From NCBI GenBank assembly GCA_964187785.1, contig OZ076409.1:59522001-59586000 (forward strand): a stretch of DNA of 64,000 bases. Reading direction: 5' to 3'. The notes under the pieces were generated by a model. It saw only the letters and a program-made list of their open reading frames with translations. It was not told the origin of the DNA and ran no database searches. Positions 10,956 to 64,000 of the stretch are shown here, one piece after another. The position numbers and the translations under genes are program-made. How positions within the stretch are numbered: position 1 is the first letter of the stretch; every line of letters begins with the position of its first letter. Source of the DNA: Amphiscolops sp. MND2022. Taxonomy: Eukaryota.

Positions 10956-12331
10956 TGCAAACTCGTCGAAATACTACAGAGTACAAACAAGGATTATTCA
11001 GTGCTAATTGTGCTAATTATGGATTTCCTTAATTGATTTTCGGTTTCGCGCATATATAGCTTCTCTGGTTATAAAATTGCTTGAAATATTTCACTTTTAT
11101 AGTTAACAGTGTAGTACTTCATAATAAGTTGGAACTTAATAACACAGTACGATCACAAAGTTAGCGCTATATTTGTCTGAGATTATTTTCTGTTCTTGAG
11201 ACGAGTTTTTTGCCGGAGAATTTTAGGCGAGTTGTTTTTCGACGAGTTTTCAGCCCAGTATTTTCGACGAGTTCTCCTATATTCTAAAATTTCAAATCCG
11301 ATTTTTCGAAAATTTGCAAAAACGGCCAAGTCAATTAGGATTAAGCCTCGGAGGAGCTCACAAATTTTAATCGAAGCTCGAGACAAAATCGAAACAAGTA
11401 GGCATAAGTACGAAAATCAAATTAGTTCAGCGAAACTTCAAGAAATCATGAAGTTTCGGGGAATCATGATTGATTTCGTTTTTATTGGGATAGTAAAAAC
11501 CGCGCCCAAGAAGCGGCAAACTTCTAGAAACCTTTAACCATTATTACCTGACAGAGTAAACTCTGATTAATAGAGTCTATGATACAATAGTTAGCTCGGT
11601 TAACAAGCTTATTCGTATTCAGTAATTTGAATACTGAATACTGAAAAGTTTGCAAACTCGTCGAAATACTACAGAGTACAAACAAGGATTATTCAGTGCT
11701 AATTGTGCTAATTATGGATTTACTTTCCTTAATTGATTTTCGGTTTCGCGCATATATAGCTTCTCTGGTTATGAAATTGCTTGAAATATTTCACTTTTAT
11801 AGTTAACAGTGTAGTACTTCATAATAAGTTGGAACTTAATAACACAGTACGATCACAAAGTTAGCGCTATATTTGTCTGAGATTATTTTCTGTTCTTGAG
11901 ACGAGTTTTTTGCCGGAGAATTTTAGGCGAGTTGTTTTTCGACGAGTTTTCAGCCCAGTATTTTCGACGAGTTCTCCTATATTCTAAAATTTCAAATCCG
12001 ATTTTTCGAAAATTTGCAAAAACGGCCAAGTCAATTAGGATTAAGCCTCGGAGGAGCTCACAAATTTTAATCGAAGCTCGAGACAAAATCGAAACAAGTA
12101 GGCATAAGTACGAAAATCAAATTAGTTCAGCGAAACTTCAAGAAATCATGAAGTTTCGGGGAATCATGATTGATTTCGTTTTTATTGGGATAGTAACAAC
12201 CGCGCCCAAGAAGCGGCAAACTTCTAGAAACCTTTAACCATTATTACCTGACAGAGTAAACTCTGATTAATAGAGTCTATGATACAATAGTTAGCTCGGT
12301 TAACAAGCTTATTCGTATTCAGTAATTTGAA
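10956..12331. repeat. Near-identical direct tandem duplication (units about 10956-11631 and 11651-12331)
   Basis: Units are identical by eye except for a 5-nt indel and two substitutions; ORFs are duplicated (11196/11896 and 11183/11883). Confidence 0.9.
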
Positions 12332-12900: not shown

Positions 12901-13152
12901 CTAAATGTCTAATATTTGCCTACAAAATGGTCGCGATATTTTCGAAACTTCTTACCTTACAAGAACATTCAACGTTTTATAGTCAGCGCTTTTAATCAAG
13001 ACTAAAATCGCCTAAATTTCAACATGATGTTGATAGTTAGGCGATTTTAGTCTTGATTAAAAGCGCTGACTATAAAACGTTGAATGTTCTTGTAAGGTAA
13101 GAAGTTTCGAAAATATCGCGACCATTTTTGTAGGCAAATATTAGACATTTAG
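12901..13152. repeat. Near-perfect palindrome of about 250 bp (foldback/MITE-like)
   Basis: CTAAATGTCT...AATCGCCTAA arm is mirrored by TTAGGCGATT...AGACATTTAG; the central TCAACATGATGTTGA is also self-complementary. Confidence 0.85.
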
Positions 13153-16039: not shown

Positions 16040-16445
16040 AGAAAACTGACGAAAAGCCATGACTATAGTCGCTCTTTTCAAAAGAAAAGGACCGACTAAA
16101 AATACACCATAGCCACTGTGAAAAAAAACTGACGAAAAGCCATGACACTATAGTAGCTCTTTTCAAAAGAAAAGCGCTGACTTAAAAAAAGCGCTGACAA
16201 AAGAAAAGGACCGACTAAAAATACACCATAGCCACTGTGAAAAAAAACTGACGAAAAGCCATGACACTATAGTAGCTCTTTTCAAAAGAAAAGCGCTGAC
16301 TTAAAAAAAGCGCTGACAAAAGAAAAGGACCGACTAAAAATACACCATAGCCACTGTGAAAAAAACTGACGAAAAGCCATGACACTATAGTAGCTCTTTT
16401 CAAAAGAAAAGCGCTGACTTAAAAAATACACCAAAGCCACTGTGG
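16040..16445 (+). repeat. Tandem repeat (about 119-bp unit, about 3.4 copies) built from the 3' end of a family A element
   Basis: The unit AAAACTGACGAAAAGCCATGAC..GGACCGACTAAAAATACACCATAGCCACTGTG is repeated. Confidence 0.8.
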
Positions 16446-35000: not shown

Positions 35001-38000
35001 CTGACTACTTTAAGATAACAACCACACTGTTTAGAGAATGTGTACCAGTTCAGAACGGAACTTCAAAAAATTGACCGCATCTAAGATTTCTATCGTGCCA
35101 GGATATCTGTAACAAGGGAGCTTTCAATTATTTTTTCGATCAGAAACATCGCACCGAGAATCAATACAAGTAAAACATTCTTGGCGTGAGTTGTTTCTTT
35201 TGCTCTAGTACAATTCTCAATTCAGGATACTGTTGAAAGTGTTTGCTTGAATTGCAGTTGCAAAAAGTATGTTTATGCCCAAAACTTAATAACCTAATAA
35301 CGCGAACAGTAACTCAAAACAAATTAGCGTTTTGTGAGCCTAAAAATTCAAAGATTCTGAATGCTTAGTAAGAAAAACCGCTACATCTAATTCCAAGAAG
35401 ATTAAAACTAAAAGTAAAATGGGACCTTCGGATAGAAGTTGTAAAATATCTCCTTTCTTTCCGAACTCAAGAAGTGTACATTGGATGAGTGCCTGTTCTG
35501 ACTTGAGTTTCTTGTTGGAGGATCTCTTGAAGCAGCGAGACGGCAAATTCTCTTTCCGCAGAGCAACAGCGTTGTTTTTTGCAGCTACAGAGGACAATTG
35601 GAGTTGCGTGGTTTTGGGCAATTCGTGTCTTTTGCAAAAGTTGAATACACTTTGGGCCTTGTTCTGATCACCCATGGCTTCTCGATGGATGATCACCTAA
35701 AAATGAATGAGATGGCAAAACTGGCATAGCAACAACTCAGGTTTGTCGTAAAAAACAAGTACCCAACAAGAACTTATAATTAGCAGCAATTAGAATTCTT
35801 CTCAAGTTTCAAGCCCTTCTCTAACTGAAAACGTGGGAAAAATGGAAGAGGACCATTCTGTGAAAAGTTGAAAATTTCGAAGAAAAAAAAACGTTGCAAG
35901 AAAAAGCCTAAGAGTTTCTCAGTTTTGGTCCCAGATAGTTTAGTTTCGAGGATACGGTAAACACTATTAAAAAAACCCTAGGAGATTACCCTTCAACCCT
36001 CCCTTTAGAACTTAGGCGTAGTCTCAAAAGTGGACCATTCAGTGTGAGGTCTCTGGTCTGACGAAAAAAAATTGTCTTCAAGTATCTGGCACTTTCTTAC
36101 AAAAAGCGCCAACTGAAGGTGGCTTTAAAAAGGACAGCGAAACAAACATTCTAGAGGACAATAAATATGCCGCCCAATTGAGAAAGTTTCGGCGAAGAAG
36201 AATCACAACATGTGGGATGGGGCTTACCTTTTCCTTACACATGATATTCGTGATACTACAATTATCAACGACACCTAAAACTCTTCAAAGTAGATAAATA
36301 AATTGTGGTTACCAGCTGACCTGTTTGACTAGCCATTGGATGATGGGGTAAATGGCGATGTAGTTGAATCCCTGGATCTCGTGGGGTTGGATGGCGTGGG
36401 GGCACTTCATGCGGGGCAGAACAGACACTATCTTCTCCACAAGACTGATCTTCTCTCCCACGTTGGCGTTCTCTTGGAACAGGATGTCCACATCCACGTT
36501 GAAGTTGCAGATGGTAATGCACCACACAATGCCACCCACTACTTGGTCGAACGGAGACAGACCCTAAACACGTTTCATCACTTTTACGAGTTACCTCTCC
36601 TGCGTCTAATTATTTACAATCGAAAATGATATTTTCAATATAAATCTAGGGGAGCATGGCGTAGTGGTTGGGGAGCATGGCGTAGAGGTTGGGGAACATG
36701 GCGTAGTGGTCGGGGAGCATGGCGTAGTGGTCGGGAAGCATGACGTAGTGGTCGGGGAGCATGGCGTAGTGGTCGGGGAGCATGGCGTAGTGGTTGGGGG
36801 GCACGGCGTAGTGGTTGGGGAGCATGGCGTAGTGGTTGGGAAGCATGGCGTAGTGGTCGAGGAGCATGGCGCAGTGGTCGAAGAGCATGGCGTAGTGGTT
36901 GGGGAGCATGGCGTAGTGGCCGGGGAGCATGGCGTAGTGGTTGGGGAGCATGGCGTAGTGGTTGGGGAGCATGGCGTAGTGGTTGGGGGCATGGCGCAGT
37001 GGTCGGGGAGCATGGCGTAGTGGTTGGGGAGCATGGCGTAGTGGTTGGGGAGCATGGCGTAGTGGTTGGGGGCATGGCGCAGTGGTTGGGGGCATGGCGC
37101 AGTGGTTGGGGAGCATGGCGTAGTGGTTGGGGAGCATGGCGTAGTGGTTGGGGGCATGGCGCAGTGGTTGGGGAGCATGGCGTAGTGGTTGGGGAGCATG
37201 GCGTAGTGGTTGGGGAGCATGGCGTAGTGGTTGGGGAGCATGGTGTAGTGGTCGGGGAGCATGGCGTAGTGGTCGGGGAGCATGGCGTAGTGGTTGGGGA
37301 GCATTGCGTAGTGGTCGGGGAGCATGGCGTAGAGGATGGGAAGCATGGCGTAGTGGTTAGAGCATTTGGCCTGTACTGGGACGGTATCAGGTTCGAATCT
37401 CTCTCAACTTACCATTGTTGGGCCTTAAGCCTTCCATCCCTAGCTTGGTGGTATGGTCAGTGACAAAAAATAACGCATTTGGCAGCGATATAAAGCAATA
37501 TACAAAGAGCAACGGTGAGCAGTCAGACCTTTGTGACCTTGAGCAAGTCACTCTGAAACCACAGCTTTAAGTCCACCATTGCTTGACTATTGGGCTGCAA
37601 ATATGGTACCATAGCTAGCTGTGGGGAGACAGTATCCGAAAGGGCGCCGACTTAGAAAAACAGAACTGCTTATTCGGCGTCCACCTCGCGGAATTGTGGA
37701 AATAAACTTTGTTTTGTAGGAAAATAGATTTGTGTAGTTTGAATTGGGGAAATTTTTCTCAAGGTTCATTATTTTTTAAGCTTGCCAATATTTGCAACGC
37801 AATATAAGGAAGATATCATTTCCTAACGAAAACGCAAAAACCATTGGTTTTCATCACCATTGAAACTTGTACACATACACAATCAGGGATACATCCGACA
37901 AATACATTTTCAAACTGAAAAAATCAGACTCGACGGACAAGATTTGAGAAAAAATCGGACGAAAGAATATGCTTGTAGTTTATATTTAAGTTTGTAAACT

Positions 38001-47680: not shown

Positions 47681-49883
47681 ACTTCAACTGGCCGACTGAT
47701 CAACTGAACGAAAGCGCAACTGACCGACTGATTGAATGATGAAATTGAATTTGATTGGTTAATGGAAATACGAGACGGTTTCGGTAATTTCATCATCTTG
47801 TCGGAGAATTTGATTGGTTAATGGAAATACGAGACGGTTTCGGAAATTTCGTAATCTTGTCGGAAAATAAACTACGTTCGAAAAACGCGTCGAAAAATTC
47901 CATATCAGCGATTATTTCAGGTTGTTATTTGAAGTGGTTAGCATATTTGTTGTATGGCTCGGTCGCTTCGCTCCCTTCGCCAAGTAGCAACACTGAGGCA
48001 TGGCCACATGGCACGTCGCTCCGCTTCGCTTCGCTCCTGCATTTAGGGCACTAGGAGTATGTGAACATATCTGACTACGTTATCGTAATTTTCTATTCAC
48101 GCATTCGGCTAGTTGCACATTCTTCCAATTGAACAGTCGGCCAATTGCACGGTACCCTGAGAACCCAATATCGAATATTACGAAATTAGAAATGTTCATA
48201 TTTCTCTATGCAAATTTCCATTGCTAAATAGCTAATTTCATTGTTGAATTCTGTGGACACTTACACCTACGAGAATTCTCAAAAACTTAAATAAATTGCA
48301 TAAAAACTCAAAAACTGAAAAAATGGCAATTTTGGGTCGTTCTGGGAAACATTTATTTCAACCATTTGTTCCAAAAAAGTTCCACAAAAACATATGCTAT
48401 GTACTTAACTTTATGATGTTGAATTTTGACAAAAAAACGTCTACCATTTGGGTATAAATTTGGAGCATGGGAAAATTGAGCAAAAAAGAGCTGTTGAAGT
48501 AATAACTTTCCTTTCCCACATATGAAGTTAAATAGAATTAACATTGGACGCGAGGGAGTTTTTTCATCGTGAAGTGTATTGTAGATGCACTTTCTTTGAA
48601 ATCAAGAAAATAGATTGTGGCGCCACAAAACCTTCCATAACTATCACGGTACCTATAAATGTACATAGTCTCCACCCGTGTAGAGTCACGATTTCTATAG
48701 GCGGAGCAAAGTGTCGACGAAACTGATCTCCTGTTAAATTCAGCGGTTCTGACAGATTCAAGAGCCAGAATGACGTAATTGTTTGAAAAATACATGTGAG
48801 AACAGGTTCTCGCGTGGTATAAAATCAATTTCAGCTGAATACAAAATATTTCCAACAATGATTTTCATGTTCTCTCTCGAAAATGGCAAAGTATTTTTAG
48901 CGTGAGCGCAAACTCGCATACCCAACATTTGTCAGTTCAAGCGAATTACTATTCATAGCCCTCGAGTATATTGAATTTCTACCCAGGAGAGTCGACAGGC
49001 TCTCGATAAAAGGCGAGATTAGCGACTCCTGGGCCGCTGGTTTCCAACTCCAACGGGATAGCCCTGTTCAAAAGTGTAAGACGTACTGCAACTTTACTGA
49101 AGTAGATTTTTAAAGAATTGAGATAAGCGAAACTTTTTCCATTCAATCCAAGCTAAAACTTCGCCATGTTTTCAGATCGAAACAAACCATGCGCATTTCA
49201 CATTCTTTAGTCCTGAAAATACGTCCTCGATTCAAGCCGCACTTTCGTTATGATAAACAATCAGCCCTATTATGATTCCCGATCCATAGGCGAAAACGCC
49301 AACACCTAGCAATGCACTTTAATGAACATTGTACCCAAGACCAGACATCAGAGATGGCGGTTTTATGCGTTCGGATATTCTTGCATACTCGCATACATCT
49401 TTTTCGCATATTCGGCAATCAAACAAATTGCGCGCTAAAGAGATACCGGGTCCAACAATCGCATTGATATACATGCTCGTTTGAAACACTTCAATTTCGT
49501 TTTTTTTTTTAAAAATAAACAGTCGAAATGGACACTCGAAATTTATCCAGGGACGCAAAAAACACTGAACCAGCGATGCAAAAAATAGGTTCAAGCTCTT
49601 AAGAGATGTTCGATGTTGATTAAAGTTGTTTTCAGAGGACCGTCAATTATTGACACCTGAGTCGTCTTATGCAACGGAACATATGGTTCTCATTGGAAAT
49701 AGCGGTAAAAGTTAGTTTTTTTGAGATTAAAATGACACTTTTTATCAGCATCTTAAAGCACATTTTTTGACAAAATTCATGGTATCTTGCATCGTAACTT
49801 TTACTATTTGTTCCGCCATAAAACTGTCATGCTTGTAGCCGACTTATTCAAATATATTTCTACACATGATCTTGTTAATCGAA

Positions 49884-50296
49884 TGTCATAGATCAAAAAG
49901 TTTAGGCAGAGCTGTGGAAAAGTTTTATTCATTTTGGCAATTCTTCTAGGAGCTGAAGGGTTCTCTCCTATAGAGATTCTCCGGAAAGTGAGAGTTGATG
50001 TTTTGAATAATTAATTAGAGTGTTTCAGAGAGATGAAGGTATTTACAAAATGTAAGAAGGAGTTTAGCATAGTTGAAGATATACTTGAAATATCGAAAAG
50101 AAATGATAGAGGTTCTGGTTGAACGTGTTTATAGTTCGTTAGTTCTCTCAGTTGTGTGTTGGGTCCACTTCCAGTGCTACAGAGGCTTTCTCATCGTATT
50201 CGTGTTGATCTGTGATTGGCTGCCACATCTGATTAGTCCACGTCTGTCCTGTGAATACTTGAACGAAATTTTGTACATGATTCTTGAATCATGACA
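49884..50296 (-). repeat. 3' LTR (413 bp)
   Basis: Matches 62219-62631 except for one substitution seen by eye (GAGCTGTGG versus GAGCGGTGG). Confidence 0.97.
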
Positions 50297-51387: not shown

Positions 51388-52713
51388 TTAAAAGAAGGGG
51401 CGCGAGGAACCAATACACATGTCCAATTGATTCCTGGAGATAAGGGCTGTTTCTCGACCATCTTCCGATACAGCCAGGTACTCAGATTCAATCTCCCATT
51501 GAATCGCTTCAACATCATCCACCTGGGGCATGGGAAGTGGGAGAGCCTGGTAGGTGGTCATAACAGTCCTTCGGGAGGCCAGAGGTATGGACATTGTCAG
51601 CATTAATCCATGTGGCAGAGTCAAGACATCTTGCAGTAATTGAGCTTCGTAATAGGATAGTAACTCCTGAATCGGAATGGCAAGAGTCAGACGGTCCAAA
51701 GCACGGATTTGTTGAATGGCAACTTTATTTAGAACAATTTCGAGAGATTCCTTGCTTAAAAGTGACATAGGGACGTACCTGCTGAGAAGAGCTGGAATAC
51801 TATTCAGCAAGTTTATTCTGTACGCAAAGAGAGCAGCTCGGTAGCTCTTTATGTTCGAATAAAACAATGAAAGCAAAGAAGAAACCGTATCGAAGTTGAT
51901 CTGCTGTCTGGAGTACAGCATCTGATCGCAGTTTCTCATGAGGTGCATGTCCTGTTTGAAAGTATCCATTTGGGTTGCCATTACTTCCCAGTTTGCATTC
52001 TGTATAGATCGCATTTGTTCCTGAAGATCATGCAGTTGGTGTAGTTCTTTACTGACGATATAGAACTTGTCATTCGTTTCTTCATTAAGTTCTTGGACAC
52101 TGTCAGACAATGAAGAAGCTACATCAAACAAGCGGTTAATGTTTGCAGCATTTTTGTTGAATTGACAGCTACCAAAGATTCCACTAAGCCTGCAACTGCC
52201 TGGACCCATTGTTATTCCAGCACCGAAAAGTCCAATTGCACCCAGTGCGGCGGCAGCAACTGGTACAGCTCTCTTGGTGCGGTCAGCAGAATCGGGAGAA
52301 ATGGGCTTCAAGAATGAGGCAGTTTCATGTTGCATGGATTGGAGCTCGGCAGTGGCAGCATCTATCTCGTTCTGTACTTCCTTCCTTAGCCAGTCAACAT
52401 TGAACCCTTCCATGGACAGATTGGTAAATTTCAAATTGCAGTTATACGATGGCATTTTCCAAAGTGTTTCCAAAACAGATGTTAGATGACTTAATTCCTT
52501 TTGAATTTGCACATCGAATTGAGGAAATGGCAATAGAAACTGGATATTCACAAATTTTTCGGCTAACAAGATCTTCTTGTCTTCATGAAAGATTATCCCT
52601 TTTTTAAGGGGACCATCAGAGGTGTCATATGGTAACACCGGAGATTGTAGGGGTACCATTGACATAAGAGAAAGAAAAACAAGAACTTTAAAGGTGATGA
52701 GGCGAAAGTCCAT
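51388..52713 (-). CDS. env: Envelope-like class I fusion glycoprotein (F-type), apparently C-terminally truncated
   Basis: Kozak context CCACCATGG; N-terminal signal peptide; furin site RTKR followed by the hydrophobic fusion peptide AVPVAAAALGAIGLFGAGITMG; heptad-rich helix after it; no C-terminal transmembrane segment before the stop. Confidence 0.85.
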   Translation of the reverse strand: MDFRLITFKVLVFLSLMSMVPLQSPVLPYDTSDGPLKKGIIFHEDKKILLAEKFVNIQFLLPFPQFDVQIQKELSHLTSVLETLWKMPSYNCNLKFTNLSMEGFNVDWLRKEVQNEIDAATAELQSMQHETASFLKPISPDSADRTKRAVPVAAAALGAIGLFGAGITMGPGSCRLSGIFGSCQFNKNAANINRLFDVASSLSDSVQELNEETNDKFYIVSKELHQLHDLQEQMRSIQNANWEVMATQMDTFKQDMHLMRNCDQMLYSRQQINFDTVSSLLSLFYSNIKSYRAALFAYRINLLNSIPALLSRYVPMSLLSKESLEIVLNKVAIQQIRALDRLTLAIPIQELLSYYEAQLLQDVLTLPHGLMLTMSIPLASRRTVMTTYQALPLPMPQVDDVEAIQWEIESEYLAVSEDGRETALISRNQLDMCIGSSRPFF

Positions 52714-53301
52714 GGTGGTGTGATCGGGTGATCAACTAAATTTGGTTCTTTTGTACAAATTTGGAACTTTTGGTGGTATCTTGGAAAAAGTTTAACTTTC
52801 AATGATACTTGTTTCTAGATCGGTTCGCAAAGAAGTGAGGCGTGGTAATGTTTACATCCGGAGATGAGGAAGTTCGGTCATTTCAATATTTGAACCAAAC
52901 ATTTGTTCATTTGCGATTATATCGAGTAGTTTGTTTCAACTCTTGAAGTTCCTGCTTTCTTTTAAACAGTCTGTTTATTTGTTTGAGTCTTCTACTTTAG
53001 TTTCACAAGTGAGTACACATGTTTGAGTAGTTTTCGAGTTTTTCAGAGTCTGTGTGTTGTCTTAAGACAACATTAAAGCTAATCTAAAAGGGAAGTCTTC
53101 CAGAGTCAAAGTTTGCTAAACTAAACAGTCACAGTCTTCTAAAGTTTTGTCTAATTTAAACAGTCAAAAGTCAGTATGTGTGACATCGTGTCGTTCCTCA
53201 AATTTGTCCTTTTGTGTTGCCCTGAAGGGACTTACGTAAAAGAAGGAGATCGTATGATCTCTTTTAAACGAGAAAGGGACAGCAGGTGCCCTCCTATCAT
53301 T

Positions 53302-53427
53302 ATGCAGTCGGAGTCAAAAGTTGACATGGAGTCAGTGGTTGTCATCTTTGTCATCATAGGGATGATCAGTCTCTTGCTAATGTATTATATGTACAAAGTG
53401 TATAAAGCTTTTGGACGTCAGCGTTAG
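53302..53427 (+). CDS. Putative 41-aa single-pass membrane micro-protein, antisense within the LTR element (possibly starting at 53176)
   Basis: MQSESKVDMES-VVVIFVIIGMISLLLMYYMY-KVYKAFGRQR: one hydrophobic helix followed by a basic tail. Confidence 0.35.
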   Translation: MQSESKVDMESVVVIFVIIGMISLLLMYYMYKVYKAFGRQR

Positions 53428-53721
53428 TGGACAGTTAGAGAGTCAAGTCAGATGTCAGTCAGTTAGAAACTAAACTAATTCTAAACTATAGATGTATCTA
53501 GTGTATAACTGTAGTTAGTTGTATTTTTATAGTTTTATATAGTTTTGTAGAGTTTTGTATAGTTAGTTTTTGTATATAAGTGTAGAGTTGTATAATCGAG
53601 TTTGTATATAGTCGCGAAATTCAGTATTTCGTGAAGAAAGAGTTTTCTATAGGATCTAATAGTCATAGTTAAGTTTTTGGCTTGATTTTCGTCAGTGTTG
53701 CTCATTTAGGAATTGTAAATC

Positions 53722-55113
53722 ATGGATATGTATCTGCGGGAAGCTATTATGAAATATCTTGACACTCAAGAAGTCAACGATGTTGTCTTGGCTACCGCAG
53801 AGAAAAGGAAGAATTTTCGTCGGTTCTGTGATACCCTTATCTTGAAAGACAACAAATTGCTGTGCAAGGGAAGGTCTGGTGAAGAACCGAAGGTGATCCC
53901 TACCCCTCAACAAGTGGACGAATGTCTATTTGAACGTCATGTGGGGCTTCTGGGTAACCACCTAACGGACAGACAAACCCTTGTGAAGGCATTGTCGAAT
54001 GCAGGTTATGGGTATCCGGTCCGGTTTGGAAGGCGCGCAGCTCTTGTGGACGAGTGAGTAAAAACGCGAATTTTGCACATTGTTGGACAGCAGGCAAGTA
54101 GAAATGGCATGATCATTTACAGGTTTCTCCGGAATTGTCAAACCTGTTTCTTCTCCGGGGTCGCAAGACCTAGGGAAAGAATGTTTCCTGTGTCAGTGGC
54201 TAGGCGAATTGAGCTTTGTGCGAAATTCAACTTTACCTGTCAATGGGAAGAGGTTGGATCCTCTAGGACAGGCGAGACAACGATGGAGTTAGACAGTCCA
54301 CGGAAGAAAGAGCCTATTGGAAAACTAGCGGAAGTCGGAGGGGAGTGTTTCTTCTCCATTTATTACCTACTAGTCGGGCGAAAGTCTGGTAAGAGAATAT
54401 CACATAGATGGGAAAAAAACTAAGATTTTTTGTTTGTTTGTTTTTTTCATGTTAAAAAGTGAAAGCGACTAATATAAATGTGTGTGCAGATCGACATAGC
54501 ACCAACGAGACCAAGAAGTGTCGTGGTATTCGGATAGCGGCCATGGAAATAGCGAAAGACGCCGCGTTCAAGAAGTTCTGCAAAGAAACTCTTGGAACGG
54601 CAATTAGCGACTTCATGACTCAGGAATGTGCCAAAGCGACAGTAGCCGTCACTGAGCACGGGGTTAGGAAAAATATGGTCAAAATGAAAAGTAGTAGAGT
54701 ACATAGAGGCGAAATGTGTAAAAAATGCAACATTTTCACAGATGCTGGCCACAGCAACACTCCTGCAGACTGACATTGCAGTATACTGGCAGTATCAGAA
54801 TGGAGGGGGGTGGGTCAGATACCGTTATGGAGAGGAGTCAAAGGGCCGAACTGGAGTATTCCTGCTTCAGTGCATTCAGGGCGGTCGAGGCCACTATGGT
54901 GCATTCCATTGTGAACCCCTATGGGACTATCCTGAAGCTTAGTGAGTGAAATCACAAAAAAAAAACGAAAAAAGCAGAAATTGGTTGTTCGGAGAACATT
55001 GTGTATTTTTTCGCAGTGTAATGCCTTTAAAACGACATCGGGGGCTCACGCAGGAACCCTGGGACAGCGACGAAGCTGAGGGAGCGGTGGGAGGGAGTTC
55101 CACGGCTATTTGA
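53722..55113 (+). CDS. Antisense five-exon accessory gene: integrase-type HHCC zinc finger plus OTU-like cysteine protease, 355 aa (exons 53722-54053, 54123-54388, 54490-54662, 54742-54941, 55017-55113)
   Basis: Four GT-AG introns (69, 101, 79 and 75 nt; donors GTGAGT, GTAAGA, GTTAGG, GTGAGT) with phases 2,1,0,2 give one open 1068-nt frame. Splicing completes H..H..CQTC and the OTU-like GGECFF..YLLVG / TEHGMLATATLLQTDIAVY / GHY motifs. AATAAA at 55189-55194. Confidence 0.8.
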
Positions 55114-55711
55114 CGACAAAAAATTTAAGTTAAAATCATCCAAAAATTTGAAAAGCATGTATAAGGTCAGTTGTTTGACGGAAAAATCAATAAAGATAAA
55201 ATTGTACCAAATATAGGGTTATAGGGTACCATTAGACGCGTATTGAAGAGAGGAATCCACTGGAGCCATTTGCAAGGGTCTACGACCAACCAATGTGGAG
55301 AAATAGGCAAAAAACTGAAATTTTCCAAGTTTGGGTCAAAAATGGGACGTAAGACAAGAATTTAAAAATTTTTGTCTCCGATTTTCGATTTTTATGGCTT
55401 AATCGGTCTATGGGGTCAAAATATGTCGATTGGGCAAAAACCAGAGGTATCCAAAGTGATTTGGTGAAGTTAGAGACCAAAATGTGCGGCTAATCTGAGG
55501 TATTTTTCGTAAGCAAACTTTTGATCAAATTTTCACTATGGAAAAGTACGGGGGGGTCAAAAGGACGGTAGGAATGGATTCTCCTGGGGCTAACGAAGAT
55601 AACGGTACCAAAATTATGCAGCTCGGATAAGTATTTGTGGAGAAAATTTAAAAAATTACGAAAAATGTCACTTTTTTGGTCAAAAATGGTCGATTTTTGG
55701 GATTTTGTGGA

Positions 55712-58700
55712 CTATTTCCACGGAGGATTGTGGAAAAATGAAGTTTTTTTCGGTTTTTGGCGTAATCTGGTAACACGCTGAGTCGATTGTGAGGATTGTT
55801 GGGGCGTACGATCATATATTGATGGTATTATCACACTTGGATAGCGTTCTTGAAGTGTTAATTCAGCATTTGGAGTTTGGGCTGAGGAGTCACAAAGTGA
55901 GCTTCTAGGCGGTTGAGGGGGGTAAAACGGTGATTGGGCCTCAAATTGAGGGTGGCTAAGATGAAGCGGAGTGCTAGAAGCCATGTGGGAGGTCTGAGTC
56001 AAAATTCGAGGTCTAGGTGACATAGTACGTGATATAGGGGAAACCGGTCTAGGTATTCTAGATTGGAAAGAAGGTGGTGGTGACACCATAGTCGGTAAAG
56101 GGGCACTCGGAAGGGTGCTCGGGTGGGTATAGGTTACAGTGGTGTGTGTTGAACCACCTTGAGGGCTATAAGATGGTCTATTAAGACAACGGTCCGCTCG
56201 GGACAAAGTCTGACTATCAAAACCCAAAAATGTTGAATTTGATGAATTTATGTCTGATGAAGAATATATACGGGAAGGTGTTCGAGATCTGGTCAAAATG
56301 CTAGAGGAAGGGTCACACAGCGGTGGAGTTGCATGTGAAACCACAAAAGCATCAGAATTGTCGGTAGACGACGAATACTGAGCATTATCATCACTAGAAC
56401 TGGTGTCTAAAGCGACATCATCTAGTGTGAAATTGGGGTTTACCGGGAGTTCATTAAGATCATCCTGTGGCGGTGCCTGGTTCAAAGGCGGAGCCATGGG
56501 AGGCTGGGGTGCCAAAGGAGGCGCGGGAGGTGCAGCTGGGGGTGCTACACGACGCGGAGTGTAATAAAATAAAACACTCGGAGCATCAGTAATTTCGTCT
56601 GTAGGTGTAAACGACTTGTCAGTTAAAAGATCAGGTAATGTACTATCAAAAAGGGACGGTTCCGACGTGTGTCTAGTGGACGGATCCGGAACGAAGTTAT
56701 TTTGATGGATTTGGGCTAAATCTTCAATCTGATACTGAGGGTTGACGGGTCTAAGTCGGATACGGTGTACACATTGTGTGTAGTTCGTACCAACTTTTCG
56801 GACAATATAGTATGAGTTTGTCAAAACTTGTTCTACTCGGTATAGAGGAAGCCATTTGGCTAAAGATTTTCCCATATGGTCGTTAACATTGGATAATTTG
56901 GGATTTAAAAGTAGACAGTAACGGTGTTTTGTCAAAGGGGCGGCGTTCGCTTTTCTATCGTAGAAGTGTCTATATTTGTTATATGCGGTGATAGTGGCAT
57001 CACGCGCAGCAGAGAACACTTCATTCATCCGATCTTGCATCGAACTAGTGAATTCGTATCTGGTTTCAAGGTTCTGGAGCGTTCGTAAATTAAAACGGAC
57101 ATCTAGCGGTTTTACCGGTTCACGGCCATGGAAAAGATAAGTTGGAGTACAACCTATTGATACATGGTATGACGTATTGTGAACAAAAGTCGCTAAGTCA
57201 ACGTACGTGTGCCAGTCCTTTTTGATTTTGTTTTCATAAATTCCGAGATACTGCTTGAGAGACGCATGAGTGCGCTCGACGGAGCCAACTGTTTGTGGAT
57301 GTTTTACAGTGGCGTATTGCATTGTTATTTCAAGTAGTTTTGACAATTCAGTCATTACTTTAGCAGTAAAAGCAGTTCCCATGTCAGAGAGTACAGTTTT
57401 GGGTATGTATGATGTTCGCATAAAAACGTGAAAAAGCTGTTTGGCAACATTTGGGGCACTTGCATTTCGTAGAGGTATCGCAAAAAGATATTTTGGAAAA
57501 ACATCCTTAGCAGTCAAAATATGAGTAAAGCAACCTGAATCTGGCAATTTCCCAACAATATCGACTTGAAGCAAGTCTCCTGGGAAATGCTGGTCCACAG
57601 CTAGGGACAAAAGCGGAGGCTTCAATGTAGCATGTTTGACTGGTTTGACTTGCAAACACGAAGAGCAGTTCTTGATATAGTTTGTCAAAAATTCTACGAA
57701 ATTCGGAAAATAAAATTTTTGTCTAAAAATCTGAGCGATTTTTGTGATACCAATGTGTCCTGCTGTTTTACTGTTGTGAACACGGTACAGAAGTTCTGTA
57801 CGTAAGTGAGCAGGGACAACATATTGGCGGGTGATTGTTTTTCCAGTATCATCAAAAAACTTTCGGTATAACACACCTTGGTAATTTTTTAATCGATTAA
57901 AGTGTTTAAGGTATTTACGTAGTTCTGAACTCAAGTATGGAGATGGGTCTGGAGGATGGGTTTCCATCCAATGTAACACTAGTTTGATGTTAGCATCTTT
58001 TTGTTGTTCTTCTCGGAGATTTAGAGAAGTCATCTTGTCAGTTAAATCAAATTCATCAAGAGGATTGGGAGCATGCAAAGCGTTCAGTGATTCAAAGGCT
58101 TTTGAGCAAGTGTTTCCATCTTTGAACGGCATGCAATCGTAGCGGATTGCGTTCACTGAATTATCTGGTACTTGCATTCCCATTTTTAGTGTTACGTTTT
58201 TGACAGGTATTTGAGAATTAAAGCGAAGTTCAAGCTTTGTATGGGGGTGGACATGAATCCTAGACAAGTAATCCGCGGCAGCATTGGCTTTGCCCGGAAT
58301 GTGTCCAAGGACAAAATTAAAATTCAATACGTGGTCCACACAGGTCCAAAGACTAGATGGTATGGTCTTAGCTTGAAAGAAGCGTGTTAAACTACGGTTA
58401 TCAGTTAAGACTAATACTGGTTTAGTGCTACCCCACAAAATGTGTGCAACAGTGTCAAGAGCAAAATGCACGGCCAAAAATTCTTTAGCGTAAATAGACA
58501 GTTTCAGGTACGTAGGCGTGAAAATTTTCGATCCAAAAGAAACGGGTACGTAAGTTTTATAGGTTTTACCTGATTGGTCAGTAATGTAATCTTCTATCAT
58601 TAGTACATAACCGGCAGCATAGAAACTTGCATCGGTTAGGATTACATACTATGCGTTAGCTTTTGGTAATCTAAGAGACAATGTACAAGCTTGTTCAAGA

Positions 58701-60760
58701 TCTTTTCGCAAGGTTTCAATTTGTTTATGGTGTTCGTCTGTAAGAACAGTTTCGTTTTCTTGGCGTAAAAGTTTGTAAAAAGGTAGAAGTTTTTCTCCTA
58801 ACTTAGGTATGAAGGCTCGAAAATATTGGAAAAACCCAATAAATCGGCGAATTTGTTTAGGCGTTTTTGGAACTTTGAGCGTAGACAAAAAGTCGGTTAC
58901 TTTTTTCTTGTCTGGTTGCATACCTTCGTTGGTGATTGTGTTACCTAGAAAGGTCATTTCTTTCAATCCAAATTCACATTTACTTGGAGTAAACTTCAAA
59001 TCTGCCTTCTCTATGCAAACAAAAATTGCTTGCAAGTTGTTAATGAATTCGTCAAAGGTGTTAGCAGCGGTGCCTAAGTCATCTACGTATTGAAAGCATT
59101 GGTCAGCTACAATACAAGGGTAGAGATATTTACGCATAAAAGAGCTAAAAGCACTAACTGAGCGACTAAGTCCTTGTGCTAAGCGTAAATAGGCAAAAGT
59201 ACGCGACAAAAGTTAAAAGAAAGAAGCTGCACTGACAGAGGATCTGCCATTTGCAGTACGTGATATGCTTGGCTACAGTCAAGCTTTGCAAAGAATTTCT
59301 TTCCTGCTAAGTGTGCGCTTACGTCTGCTAACGTTGCAATCGGAAAATTATGGTTATCATAGTCATGTCGAATAAGGTGATTTATTCGACGAAGATCTAC
59401 CAAAAGACGGAGTTTACCAGAAGGTTTTCGAACTGCAAAGATGGGGCCAGAGTATTTCGAATACTTCAATGTGGTTATCACACCCCAATACTGTAACAAG
59501 GCTAGTTCTACTAACACTTCATCACGGTAATGAATCGGTGTAGGCGGCCAAAGAGTGTACATAGGTTCGTCATGTTCTGGCGTTAGTTTAACTTTAAAAT
59601 CATCGTTTTTTCCAATGTCTAACCTATGTCTAGCAAAAATGTGGTGGTAGTCTAAGAGAAGGTTTTCGACTGCACGTCTTTGTTCACTATTAAACACGGA
59701 ATTTTTCCACGGAAATTGAGCTAAGAATTTCTGTTTGTCTAAGGCGTTTGAGATAGGATCTAGTTTCTCTTCTTTTTTCAGTTGAACAATTTCATCGTAA
59801 ATGCGTTTTTCAATTCCAGTCAATGTTCCGGGATTAGAACAATTTTCGGGAGTTGGAAACCAAAGCTCATCTGTCGACGGTGAAACTTTGATCTCCGAAT
59901 CCTGGATAAGCGCATTAATGTTCTGGTTAAAGTAATTCGACAGAAGTTGTGGGTTTATAGGCTGTAGGTATTCGGCTTGTTTCGGTGTTAGTATCGTGAT
60001 TCGTGCAATAACAGAATTTTTCTGAACGGTAACTTTATGAGGCAAAACATTCAAAATGGCAAGTGAAACATCTTGTTTTGCTTTAAGAGTTATGAGTGCA
60101 CTAGTGACACAAAGTCCTGTTTGGTTTTCAAATTTAGCATGAGGTTCAATAATGGCTACGGTTCCATCTGGGTAGGAACAGTTTGGAAAAGAACATTGAA
60201 CTATTTCAGTAGTGTTCGGGTTTATCGATAAGGAACTGTTATTTCTCAAAAAATGGTTTTTTCGAAGAAACAGCACTAATTTTTCCATTTGTGTGGATTT
60301 TTTCGGTGAGTTGAAGAGTTAAATTGGGCAGTTTAAGAGTGCGACTCTTTGGGTGTATAGAAATGTCGTTTTTCTCAAAAAATGGGAGTCCAAGAATCGT
60401 TTGATTCATTGTCTTCAGTAGTAAGAAAGTATCTGTAAATTTTTCGTTTGCAATGTTGAAAGTGGCTTTAAATGTGCCATACGTAGGTACAAGTGATCCA
60501 TTTGCTACTTTAATGGAGCTTGGTGTTGGATCGAAATTGGTTATACTGGTTGGGCTTTCTTTTTTAAGTTTTTTGAAAATGTTTAGAGGCATAGCGCTAC
60601 AAAATGCGCCTGTATCAATAAGAGCTTTAATAGAAAAGGTAAAGTTAATAGGTACTGAGAAAAGTGAAGTGCGAGGCTTTGAGGATAAAACATTAATAGA
60701 GGAAAAAGATGAAGGATTAGGTGAGGCAGAAAAAGAACGGGTTATGTGTGGCTTACCTAG
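55712..60760 (-). pseudogene. pol: pol polyprotein (protease - dUTPase-like spacer - RT - RNase H - integrase - Pro/Ser tail), interrupted in this assembly
   Basis: LIDTGAF protease motif (about 60600-60625); RT FQYVDD; RNase H LTDAS; integrase HNSKTAGH..CSSC, VDIVG, SDMG and VERTH. Breaks: frameshifts near 60255 and 59208, in-frame TAG at 58649-58651. Confidence 0.93.
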
Positions 60761-61964
60761 TTTTTTTGGTTCTGTGCCATATTGGCATCATAGTAGGGTG
60801 ACCAAGGTTGGGTCATCGGGTTGTATTGTGGCATCATCGGTGTAGTCATCTGAGGTTGAGAGAATGACGGTTGGGAAAACGACGGTTGGGGTTGGTAGTT
60901 GGAAAATTGTTGATAAGGTAATTGAGGCGGTTGGCGATTTTGTGGGCGAAACCAACATTGGGCAATTGTATGTCCAAATTTATTGCAGTGACTACAATGG
61001 CGTTGAGAAGATTGAGCATTTCGATTGTTCTGGTTATCTCGTCCATTTTGCCAATTGTTATTGTTGCGTTTCCCATTATTGTTGTTGTTGCGATTGTTAT
61101 TGTTTTGGTGATTATTCCAGTTATTATTTCGCTTCTGGTTGTTCCAATTCTGATTATTACGTTGCTTGTTTTGTTGCTGATTTTGATTTTGAAATTTTTG
61201 CTCATTATTTTTCTGCTGGCTTTGATTTTGATTTTGCTGCATCAGCTGATTTATTGTAGGCTGGATGGTTTTAATTAAATCTCTGATTTCTTCAGAAATT
61301 TTTGCAGTCTCTTGTTTCAAAGTATCATGAGCAACAGAGAGTGCTTGCAATCCTGACAAAAGTTCTTTATTTGAAGCTGGACTTACTTCATTGAATGCCG
61401 TATCATCATCCTCTGGATAGAGGCGATCAACGATCATTCTACTGGCAGCTTTTGCGCAGAGATCCTCGATTGTCGTGTCTTCTGGCTGTGTCATCAGAAA
61501 TCTTCTGAGTTTGATTGGCATTCCGTTTATGAATGCTTCTCGTACTCGTCTCGCTCTCTCGAGTGCTCTATTTTCAGCAGCAACTGCGGGTCGTCCTCCT
61601 GCAGCAGCTCTGGCAACGACGTTTGGGTAAGCCTCCAATGCCAAACGTTGGAGGTCAGTGAGGAAGTCTTGGGCACTTTCCTCGGACGATTTCAATTTTC
61701 TGGCTGAGAAGATGAGTTTCTGCAATTGAACGCGCTGGTCGTTCTGGTATCTCTCACGAAGTGCAGCTACGGCGAGATCATAATCAACTCTCGCGGCTTC
61801 GGGCAGTTGATCGAAGAATGTTAATGCACCACCCTTGAGGTGCAAATGCAGATACTGATGACAATTTGGATGCAGCTTGCATGTTGTCTGAGGAACTCAT
61901 TTAAATTTTCTTTTTCTGTACCCTTAAAGGGTTGAAGATTTACAAAAGGTTGAATTGCGGCCAT
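60757..61964 (-). pseudogene. gag: gag with CCHC zinc knuckle and N/Q-rich region; frame break near 61860
   Basis: Likely start MAAIQPFVNLQPFKGTEKENLNEFLRQ at 61964; continues in ORF 60757-61845 with CSHCNKFGHTIAQC. Confidence 0.85.
60760..60766 (-). promoter_or_regulatory. -1 programmed ribosomal frameshift heptamer A AAA AAC at the gag-pol junction
   Basis: CAA AAA AAC TAG ends gag. The -1 frame (CTA GGT AAG...) stays open through the protease DTG motif. Confidence 0.8.
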
Positions 61965-62218: not shown

Positions 62219-62631
62219 TGTCATAGATCAAAAAGTTTAGGCAGAGCGGTGGAAAAGTTTTATTCATTTTGGCAATTCTTCTAGGAGCTGAAGGGTTCTC
62301 TCCTATAGAGATTCTCCGGAAAGTGAGAGTTGATGTTTTGAATAATTAATTAGAGTGTTTCAGAGAGATGAAGGTATTTACAAAATGTAAGAAGGAGTTT
62401 AGCATAGTTGAAGATATACTTGAAATATCGAAAAGAAATGATAGAGGTTCTGGTTGAACGTGTTTATAGTTCGTTAGTTCTCTCAGTTGTGTGTTGGGTC
62501 CACTTCCAGTGCTACAGAGGCTTTCTCATCGTATTCGTGTTGATCTGTGATTGGCTGCCACATCTGATTAGTCCACGTCTGTCCTGTGAATACTTGAACG
62601 AAATTTTGTACATGATTCTTGAATCATGACA
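62219..62631 (-). repeat. 5' LTR (413 bp)
   Basis: TG...CA ends; adjacent PBS; followed by TSD TCGAA. Confidence 0.97.
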
Positions 62632-64000
62632 TCGAAAGATTGAAATTGAGCAGTAACAATTTCATTATCCTTGTAACTAATTTTTTATAATCGTTCTACC
62701 AATAAATGCTAAACCAAAAGCTGTTCAAAATCAAGACCCTGTTATTTCAACAATCAAACACAAAATTAAGTATTTTAATAAGTTGGGTCTCAGATATTTT
62801 CTAAAAAAGTCACATTAAATACATAAAATAATTCTGTCGGTGTCACCTTCAATCTCGGTCCACTTCACTGGAAAACATTATCGAAACGCGAAGAAAATTC
62901 CCCACAACAATGCATCGCTCATTGATCCTCCTATTGAACATGCGCAATAGACTGCAGTTTCTTTCAGCAGGTCCAATTACGACAGCAGGTATCATGAATC
63001 GCAGGATTTTTGAGATTGAAAACACTTCTAGGACAAAATCATAATTTCATTACCTTTTTTATTGGGCTTCCTGTTTTCGTATCACCGGTGAATTCACACT
63101 ACTCCCGACAATTATCACAGCTTTCATGAAGATTTTTAAGAACTTTTGAAAATTTTAAGATTCATTAGCAGCGAGAAACCATCAATACTGAAAATTCGCA
63201 ATTGGTAATCGCTATATGGACTTACAAGTTACCAGAGAAACATGTGTATTTCAGACCCCCTTTCTCAATGGCTATCGACTTTCTCTAAATATAACACCAA
63301 TAAACAACAATTAAGCGAGCTTTCGCATCAATTTTTTAGTCCGCGTTTTCGGAGAAAATGCAAGGCTGTCACAAAGACTAGTTTTTTTTCTCCAGTAGCT
63401 AGGATCCGTCTACTTTCACGAATCATAGATGGAGCAACGATAAAGTAAAAGGCCAATTTGTCTAGCCAGCACGCTATATCCAATTTTTAGATGTTATATA
63501 CGAAGTAAGTTGCGTTTCAGGAAAGAGGCTCAAAAAGCACTCCCACGTGACCCAGCACGCTATATCCGAACCTTTAACCTTATATCCGAAGTAAGTTGCA
63601 TTCTACTAAAGTGGAGGTTCGAAAATATTGCGATATAACCCATTTTTTTAAGACCACAAGCGTTTGCGAGCTTGAAGCTTCTTTTTCGGCACTATGAAAC
63701 TTTTTCCCGACAAAAACTTTCAAAAAATAATTTTGAGAAAATGGTTTTGTTTTCAGTTGGGAGCTGGTTTTCGAATCTTATTCGCATCCTTTCAGGTATT
63801 TTTCGGCACTGAGAAATTCATAAATTTTTAACAATAGTGTCAATAATAAAGGCATTTGCATAATTAAGAGACTTGGTTTTTTGAAACTCGAGCGGGGCGC
63901 CGACTTGGGCTGTGCCCAGCTTGTTCTAGTTTAAGAAAGTGAAATTGTTCGAACCAAAATATTCGAAGCACAAATCAGGAAAATCCATGCAGGTTTTTAT

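Follow-up and report, generated by a model that had tools for sequence, protein, structure and literature searches.

Whether animal retrotransposons encode enzymes that counteract silencing is an open question. The locus described here raises it in a concrete form: an env-bearing LTR element contains, on the strand opposite to its own genes, a set of reading frames which could be joined by splicing into a single gene. We have asked whether this gene is real, what its product would be, in which elements it is found and what it could do for them. We consider it a candidate for such an enzyme.

The gene and the element which carries it

The main features are collected in Table 1. Positions refer to the window, the whole stretch of 64,000 nucleotides that was analyzed, unless another locus is named. 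The gene is antisense to gag-pol-env and lies between pol and env. Its five exons add up to 1068 nt, which correspond to 355 codons and a stop, with no internal stop codons. A preliminary description of the window had proposed this spliced frame, followed by an AATAAA; the coordinates are correct, with splicing as a prediction, and the AATAAA is also present. All four predicted introns are GT...AG, with sizes of 69, 101, 79 and 75 nt, and their GC content is lower than that of the exons (0.28–0.41 vs 0.47–0.58). In our opinion, it is almost certain that this spliced antisense gene is real.

Other signals around the gene are more variable. The AATAAA is retained at the same distance in the close subfamily and not in the more divergent copies L027–L030. 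In 21 of 29 divergent loci a TTYYAG sequence precedes the ATG by 4–13 nt, compared with 4 of 288 background windows; from its sequence, it is a candidate acceptor for an intron in the 5' UTR or for trans-splicing. No match to exon 5 was found in clade B, one of the two Gypsy clades (A and B) which contain the gene. The window copy is one codon short near position 54354, right after the Cys codon and within a helix, compared with 28 of 29 other copies; given this missing codon, the window copy itself may be inactive.

The element around the gene is assigned to Ty3/Gypsy by its paired LTRs, its target-site duplication and the order protease, RT, RNase H, integrase, all of which are present. Its env frame stops early (447 aa, compared with up to 766 aa in close siblings) and its pol is in four pieces, so it is a young but defective copy. 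A search of env against the PDB gave a sole match, paramyxovirus F0, with an E value of 0.86. The second antisense ORF is conserved in the close family, in clade B and in one of the JmjC-like lineages described below. A weak dUTPase match (E 0.096) lies between protease and RT (window 59179–60318, minus strand), and PF00692 is present in some related Pol proteins.

Table 1. Positions of the gene, of the element which carries it and of related genes in other loci.
Feature	Position	Strand	Remarks
LTR element carrying the gene		-	12.7 kb, env-bearing Ty3/Gypsy
5' LTR	62219..62631	-	One mismatch relative to the 3' LTR; target-site duplication 62632-62636
gag-like ORF	60757..61896	-	Assigned by position; only a weak Zn-finger match
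pol	55712..60787	-	Protease, RT, RNase H, integrase; four ORF pieces in the window copy
env-like ORF	51388..52731	-	Basic site resembling a cleavage site, and a hydrophobic peptide, both seen by eye
3' LTR (TG...CA)	49884..50296	-	5-nt target-site duplication 49879-49883
Second antisense ORF	53155..53427	+	About 83 aa from ATG 53176; C-terminal hydrophobic segment, Cys-Cys motif
Candidate splice acceptor	53704..53709	+	12 nt before the ATG; weak in the window copy
Exon 1	53722..54053	+	Integrase-type N-terminal extension; two finger His, codons 53938 and 53959
Intron 1	54054..54122	+	GT-AG, phase 2
Exon 2	54123..54388	+	Finger CxxC (54136, 54145), linker, putative catalytic Cys 54346-54348 at helix start
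Intron 2	54389..54489	+	GT-AG, phase 1
Exon 3	54490..54662	+	Helical part of the OTU fold; invariant Glu near the end (27/27)
Intron 3	54663..54741	+	GT-AG, phase 0
Exon 4	54742..54941	+	OTU beta-sheet; putative catalytic His 54907-54909, third residue Glu 54913-54915
Intron 4	54942..55016	+	GT-AG, phase 2; in Gypsy clade A and Polinton-like copies
Exon 5	55017..55113	+	Short acidic tail, stop
Candidate polyadenylation signal AATAAA	55189..55194	+	
BEL/Pao homolog	L059:2206-3249		Intronless finger-OTU gene
BEL/Pao homolog	L061:3916-4950		Intronless finger-OTU gene
BEL/Pao homolog	L062:3052-4083		Intronless finger-OTU gene
BEL/Pao homolog	L063:2603-3583		Intronless finger-OTU gene
Polinton-like loci	L033, L040-L042, L089-L091		C8:48174210-48192334 and others
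JmjC-like ORF	L064:1386-2285	+	Pfam E 6.5e-4, below cut-off
JmjC-like ORF	L065:2360-3439	-	Motif by eye only

Copies of the gene and selection

All genome-wide searches were made on the 1.07-Gb assembly, a eukaryotic genome which, judging from the kinds of elements in it, is probably that of an invertebrate animal. A DNA search gave at least 42 matches (40 scored of 62 candidates), and 30 loci were fetched. In these loci env is found upstream in 27 cases and the end of pol downstream in 29, both on the strand opposite to the gene. Among the 29 other copies, 226 of the 231 splice dinucleotides covered are intact. The subfamily L027–L030, which has 74% nucleotide identity to the window copy, shows zero frame-shifting indels in exons, against 14–16 intron indels per copy. 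Comparison with this subfamily gives a dN/dS of 0.076–0.084, at a dS of about 1.1; exon by exon, omega for L027 is 0.05–0.21, with about 0.05 in exon 1. Four of the five alternative frames give values of 1.7–4.3 against L027–L030; the fifth, which is antisense and shares third positions, gives about 0.15 and has 16 stops. Three further divergent pairs, from clades A and B, have an omega of 0.055–0.107. Near-identical pairs give uninformative values (1.6 for L037/L056, 1.5 for the BEL pair L059/L063 and 0.19–0.28 for three others), and the dN/dS support for purifying selection refers to Gypsy clades A and B only.

Protein searches extend the family further, with at least 150 genomic matches each for exon 1 (down to about 30% identity) and exon 4 (about 44%), from which 28 divergent loci were fetched. 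Of the 31 evaluable loci among L027–L058, 28 have GT...AG borders for intron 3 at the corresponding position. The exceptions are two loci which are one base off, where the extension is approximate, and one decayed copy without the AG. Introns 1 and 2 show by inspection the same kept pattern, with variable lengths. The positions and phases of introns 1–3 are homologous in lineages which are only about 30% identical in exon 1. The gene and its splice sites are conserved family-wide, with omega of 0.05–0.11 between divergent subfamilies, in agreement with the accessory gene that had been suggested and not with a one-off nested insertion, since there are copies throughout the family and no terminal inverted repeats around the gene. 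Several copies besides that of the window carry defects.

The relatives found outside this genome are ENA fragments, with two proteins for exon 1 and 15 for exon 4. A pattern scan with exon 4 of JGI metagenome and IMG/VR contigs gave zero confirmed matches. We should also note that tandem duplications of the gene, or of its first exons, are found inside single elements (C9:30826287-30829780, C4:3833997-3837740 and C8:46827309-46830926).

The integrase-derived N-terminus

Removal of intron 1 had been said to complete an integrase-type HHCC finger, and several comparisons agree with this. A profile alignment (hhalign) to the N-terminus of the element's own integrase has an E value of 5.5e-5 over 100 columns, with the His and CxxC in register, compared with 0.3–0.5 for the RNase H and integrase-core controls. 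In the structural model described in the next section, that of the copy L030, the N-terminus matches foamy-virus integrase 8–96 (Z 6.0, 87 aligned) and Ty3 integrase 26–131 (Z 5.2). The best Atlas matches are Integrase_H2C2 clusters, at 0.94 with 151–155 shared features, below the 170 which are typical of the same family. Conservation was measured in 27 copies, which are the 32 loci L027–L058 without five that are mixed, incomplete or have frame shifts. Of these copies 26–27 keep the finger residues, and all 27 keep the His/His/Cys. PF17921 gives no match on exon 1 or on the read-through copies, and E 0.1 for the BEL homolog described below.

No DDE core is present, as had also been noted. Only about 65 residues separate the CxxC of the finger from the OTU Cys, there is no rve match, and an integrase-core profile aligned to the N-terminal part gives an E value of 0.33.

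The OTU-fold domain

The copy L030 was folded with its introns read through, because exons 1–4 are in one genomic frame there; the alignment contained 78 further rows. The model has a pLDDT of 75, and its low parts are the three intron-encoded inserts. In a structure search of 48,161 chains the top 20 matches are all OTU proteins, two of which are identified as such by their titles; the first non-OTU match has a Z of 6.0. The best match, in a search which was repeated, is OTUD1, with Z 8.7, rmsd 3.3 and 123 aligned residues. Z scores of 6–9 are middling. A Foldseek list is also dominated by OTU proteins, with no match at E <= 0.001. A profile of the Gypsy protein alignment gave zero matches against PDB sequences, and PF02338 does not match the Gypsy protein, its single exons or the read-through copies. 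The preliminary description had suggested an OTU-like C-terminus after an Integrase_H2C2 finger, to be checked by structure and by Pfam. The structural matches stand for both parts; the Pfam matches do not appear for either PF02338 or PF17921. We consider it very probable that the C-terminal domain has an OTU fold.

The putative catalytic Cys is found in 25 of the 27 copies, the His at 54907 in 26 and the Glu which follows in 26. This His-x-Glu (54907, 54913) is invariant in 20/20 and lies on the last strand of the model. The Cys is kept after a Gly-rich loop, and a helix of the model begins at the next residue. In structural alignments to OTUD1, OTUB1 and the CCHFV OTU, the alignment ends put the conserved His in register with the catalytic His of these proteins. 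The catalytic His had been placed at codon 54892, which must be corrected: it is present in only 8 of the 27 divergent copies, in a variable loop, against 26 of 27 for 54907. From this conservation we infer a Cys-His-Glu triad, and intact copies probably encode an active protease.

Some features are unusual. OTU proteases generally have an Asp three residues before the catalytic Cys, while the Gypsy protein has a Gly there. The loop of the Cys departs from the canonical form, and that preceding the His is unusually long. The His is also adjoined by an additional conserved Cys, which could be part of a metal site. We also considered a loss of the Cys in the Polinton-like lineage (group D), which was rejected: only L033 is changed, and its siblings L040–L042 keep the Cys. 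The second exception is a decayed copy, L048.

Related genes in BEL/Pao and Polinton-like elements

A genome scan with PF02338 led to an intronless, full-length homolog, which is antisense and tail-to-tail with a BEL/Pao pol in the four of four loci opened. The carrier has Peptidase_A17, DUF1759, DUF5641 and rve in one polyprotein, and an element end which begins with TG is shared beyond the gene in L061 and L062. The homolog has 122 genomic matches, including fragments, and about 13 of the copies, nearly identical to each other, make up a young family; outside this genome, five ENA protein fragments are related to it. L059 passes PF02338 (27.2 bits, cut-off 23.3) and L061 is below the cut-off. 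The BEL homologs keep a canonical Cys...His-x-Asp. An hhalign comparison with the Gypsy protein gives a probability of 96 and an E value of 2e-9 over 252 columns, collinear through finger, linker and OTU, with a score of 70.7, whereas the highest score among 30 column shuffles is 26.3. Finger, linker and OTU parts, each alone, give E values from 1e-4 to 5e-3. This collinear full-length alignment points to one DDE-less ancestor, rather than to separate trimmings. An Atlas search with the BEL homolog gave no usable match, and its single-sequence fold had a pLDDT of 43.

Other OTU domains are found in ORFs of 2200–2700 aa (L060:1-2448 on the minus strand, C2:103743429 and C2:103635724). L060 is Helitron-like, with a DUF6570 match; in comparisons with the Gypsy OTU, its domain comes second to that of the BEL homolog (E 1e-3). 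L066 and L067, on the small contigs C1676 and C1381, have OTU-bearing ORFs which are unlike the rest by eye, and they are possibly not host DNA.

The intron-containing gene is also found in seven copies of an 18-kb DNA element, which are 96–100% identical over the region. All four introns are kept, and these copies group with Gypsy clade A. In L033, the one long locus tested, there is no env or pol match. The gene is near one end of the element, and an array of repeats of about 700 nt each separates it from PolB. The distance between the inverted termini is 17–18 kb in three copies and 25 kb in another. An rve integrase and a Pox_A32 ATPase are above the Pfam cut-off; an ORF of more than 1200 aa has PolB motifs by pattern only, with no Pfam PolB match. 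With its inverted termini, integrase, packaging ATPase and PolB-like ORF, the carrier may be placed in the Polinton/Maverick type, and we call it Polinton-like. Among the matches listed, other elements with the same termini have no close copy of the gene. A terminus of this element holds a tRNA-like sequence with A and B boxes.

JmjC-like genes in the same slot and possible transfers

Two env-bearing sister Gypsy lineages have no trace of the OTU gene in the slot between pol and env; they have instead an intronless antisense ORF which resembles JmjC, an identity which is weak (Table 1). The Pol of L064 ends in a macrodomain (L064:3224-4300, minus strand, Pfam Macro above cut-off), and a macrodomain is seen by eye in the Pol of L065 (L065:2-847, plus strand); the Pol of the window element has no Pfam Macro match. 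The L064 JmjC-like protein has 119 genomic matches. Many of the distant ones are paired on one strand at a spacing of about 7 kb, which would be expected if the gene were inside both LTRs of another family, for example C2:42980661/42987734, C4:45366879/45373956 and C6:66824004/66831087.

In an env tree of 13 rows the OTU-bearing elements do not form one clade (AU p 5e-5), with at least two changes. This tree is based on env only, with a midpoint root, and two of its four non-OTU rows are labelled by a nearby JmjC-like match. Since the gene is found in Polinton-like and BEL/Pao elements, its immediate donor may be another mobile element. A DNA element would be a natural source of an intron-containing gene, which would explain two gains in Gypsy; the fact that a single Polinton-like subfamily was found with the gene fits a reverse transfer equally.

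Comparison with known systems

HBZ of HTLV-1 is a spliced antisense accessory gene of a complex retrovirus, which encodes a bZIP regulator. The present gene is also antisense, predicted to be spliced and located in an LTR element with env, but HBZ is not known to have an enzyme or integrase-derived part. Antisense extra ORFs are known in plant and fungal LTR retrotransposons (Grande gene23, RIRE2, Retand, Boty), without clear similarity or known function (PMC7264820). These are likewise family-wide, lie between pol and the 3' LTR and have been proposed as regulatory; the present gene differs in its four introns, its enzyme fold, its position between pol and env and its presence in two other element classes. 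The ORF3s of rotifer LTR retrotransposons (GDSL, DEDDy), as presented in the main text of PMC5408684, are enzymatic, family-specific, gained more than once and shared among diverse retroelements, all of which resembles our case. They are other enzymes, and that main text never uses the words OTU, ubiquitin or intron; the sharing described here reaches a DNA element.

Closer in domain content are the Ginger1 DNA transposases, which, in the accessible text of PMC2836005, have a YPYY/H2C2 integrase N-terminus, a C-terminal OTU and GT-AG introns. The Gypsy gene has an integrase-type N-terminus, an OTU C-terminus and GT-AG introns too. As to the YPYY region, a homologous stretch is present, with Tyr...Tyr-Pro in the BEL homolog and not clearly in the Gypsy version. 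In the same text, Ginger1 has a DDE core, a GPY/F, terminal inverted repeats of 40–270 bp and a 4-bp CCGG/CCGT duplication; our gene lacks all of these and stands alone inside other elements. In a search of 52750–55720, the longest inverted pair has 28 nt at 75%, and both of its arms are within introns. Since the gene is not flanked by terminal inverted repeats, a nested Ginger insertion was rejected. Of the 17 genomic PF02338 matches 6 were opened, and none of these is Ginger-like. With no DDE core and no terminal inverted repeats, the gene is not a member of Ginger1. Judging by its sequence, it appears to be built like Ginger1 minus the core, and it would work like an OTU protease.

Helitrons/Helentrons and Polinton/adintovirus PolB carry an OTU fused to a replication protein, as described in the accessible parts of PMC6431247 and PMC8502044. 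The present OTU differs from those in being a separate gene with an integrase finger, and the Polinton-like carrier has it besides PolB. Metazoan env-carrying Ty3/Gypsy elements have the same LTR-gag-pol-env layout, their F-like env features may also be present in the window element, and the accessible text of PMC13524379 mentions no OTU or antisense gene. The present family would be filtered from that survey, because its gap between pol and env is about 3 kb and the limit given there is 1000 nt.

Each of the ingredients is known; their combination is new as far as the literature was searched. No description of such a gene arrangement was found there; supplements, Repbase and most subscription papers, which are outside this scope, may mention it.

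Proposed function

Our preferred explanation is that the gene encodes an accessory deubiquitinase which is targeted to the element; as a whole, we give it a probability of roughly 0.55. The gene would be transcribed opposite to gag-pol-env and then spliced. The packaged genomic RNA would hold the introns as reverse complements, which should be invisible to the spliceosome, and for this reason they would survive reverse transcription. In the product, an integrase N-terminal module (extension and HHCC zinc finger) would be joined to a cysteine protease of the OTU fold, with no DDE core. Most likely, the module would bring the protease to the DNA or chromatin of the element, or to the integration complex, and the protease would strip ubiquitin, or a ubiquitin-like tag, which the host uses for silencing the element or destroying its proteins. 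The cassette is also found in Polinton-like and BEL/Pao elements, and in Gypsy it alternates with the JmjC-like gene in one antisense slot. Targeting to the element is favored for three reasons: the constraint on the module equals that on the protease, the module persists in three element classes that all depend on a DDE integrase, and the gene with which it alternates resembles a chromatin eraser. For a nuclear counter-defence role of this kind we would put the chances at about even.

Among other readings, an active OTU protease might be a cytoplasmic antagonist of ubiquitin-dependent immune or stress signalling, the finger being a structural leftover or a dimerisation domain. Nairovirus and arterivirus OTUs antagonise ubiquitin-based immunity, viral OTUs in complex with ubiquitin or ISG15 are frequent among the best structural matches, and some of the carriers are env-bearing elements or a virus-like Polinton. 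However, cellular OTUs are structurally just as similar as viral OTUs, the integrase module shows conservation as strong as that of the protease (exon 1 omega about 0.05) and is kept in the BEL homolog, and the alternative cargo of the slot resembles a chromatin enzyme, so that we find this not very likely. The domain might also be a pseudo-enzyme or a ubiquitin-binding scaffold, which could for example regulate the element's own integrase through the HHCC, as a dominant-negative or a chaperone; the non-canonical Cys loop, the longer loop before the His, the extra conserved Cys and the lack of a Pfam OTU match would all fit. This is unlikely, since clades A and B and the Polinton-like copies all retain the Cys, His and Glu, with the Cys missing only through a change in a single copy (L033) and in a decayed copy (L048), and the BEL homologs have a canonical Cys...His-x-Asp.

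It is improbable that an active protease matures the proteins of the element itself (Pol, Env or the small membrane ORF), instead of acting on host tags. Viral OTU-fold proteases can double as polyprotein proteases, and the gene is linked to env and the small membrane ORF, but an aspartic protease is already encoded by these elements, a JmjC-like gene takes its place in sister lineages which replicate all the same, and three element classes that are not related to each other make use of the gene. The selection data largely refute a passive relic, in which a truncated Ginger-like transposon nested in the element would be copied without function: omega is 0.05–0.11 at a dS of about 0.6–2, splice sites are kept while intron interiors drift, and terminal inverted repeats are lacking. 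The domain order, which is that of Ginger1 minus the DDE core (PMC2836005), and the defects of the window copy and several others would agree with a relic, to which we nevertheless give almost no probability.

Returning to the element-targeted deubiquitinase, its relatives in two other kinds of mobile elements suggest a shared tool against host defences. A wider proposal, which is possible but rather doubtful, is that three unrelated classes trade a finger-targeted deubiquitinase and that this, with the JmjC-like gene and the macrodomain Pol, would form an "eraser" kit for ubiquitin, methyl and ADP-ribose, the antisense orientation retaining the introns. If true, this kit would be an anti-silencing system of animal transposons, and the antisense orientation a device which lets a retroelement keep intron-containing genes. 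In any case, a retroelement retains predicted spliceosomal introns across deep divergence, and elements based on RNA and on DNA have a gene in common. For the antisense extra ORFs of LTR elements no function could be assigned (PMC7264820), and one with a recognisable enzyme fold is found here. This gene is under strong purifying selection, has more than 100 matches per exon and comes with natural controls, the lineages with a different cargo in the slot.

Other repeats in the window

A dispersed repeat family extends across the whole window. A perfect direct repeat of 300 nt, with copies 700 nt apart, is found at 11024–12023, a 102-nt hairpin at 12924–13128, a 119-nt tandem repeat at 16079–16434 and a tandem array with a 21-nt repeat at 36566–37441.
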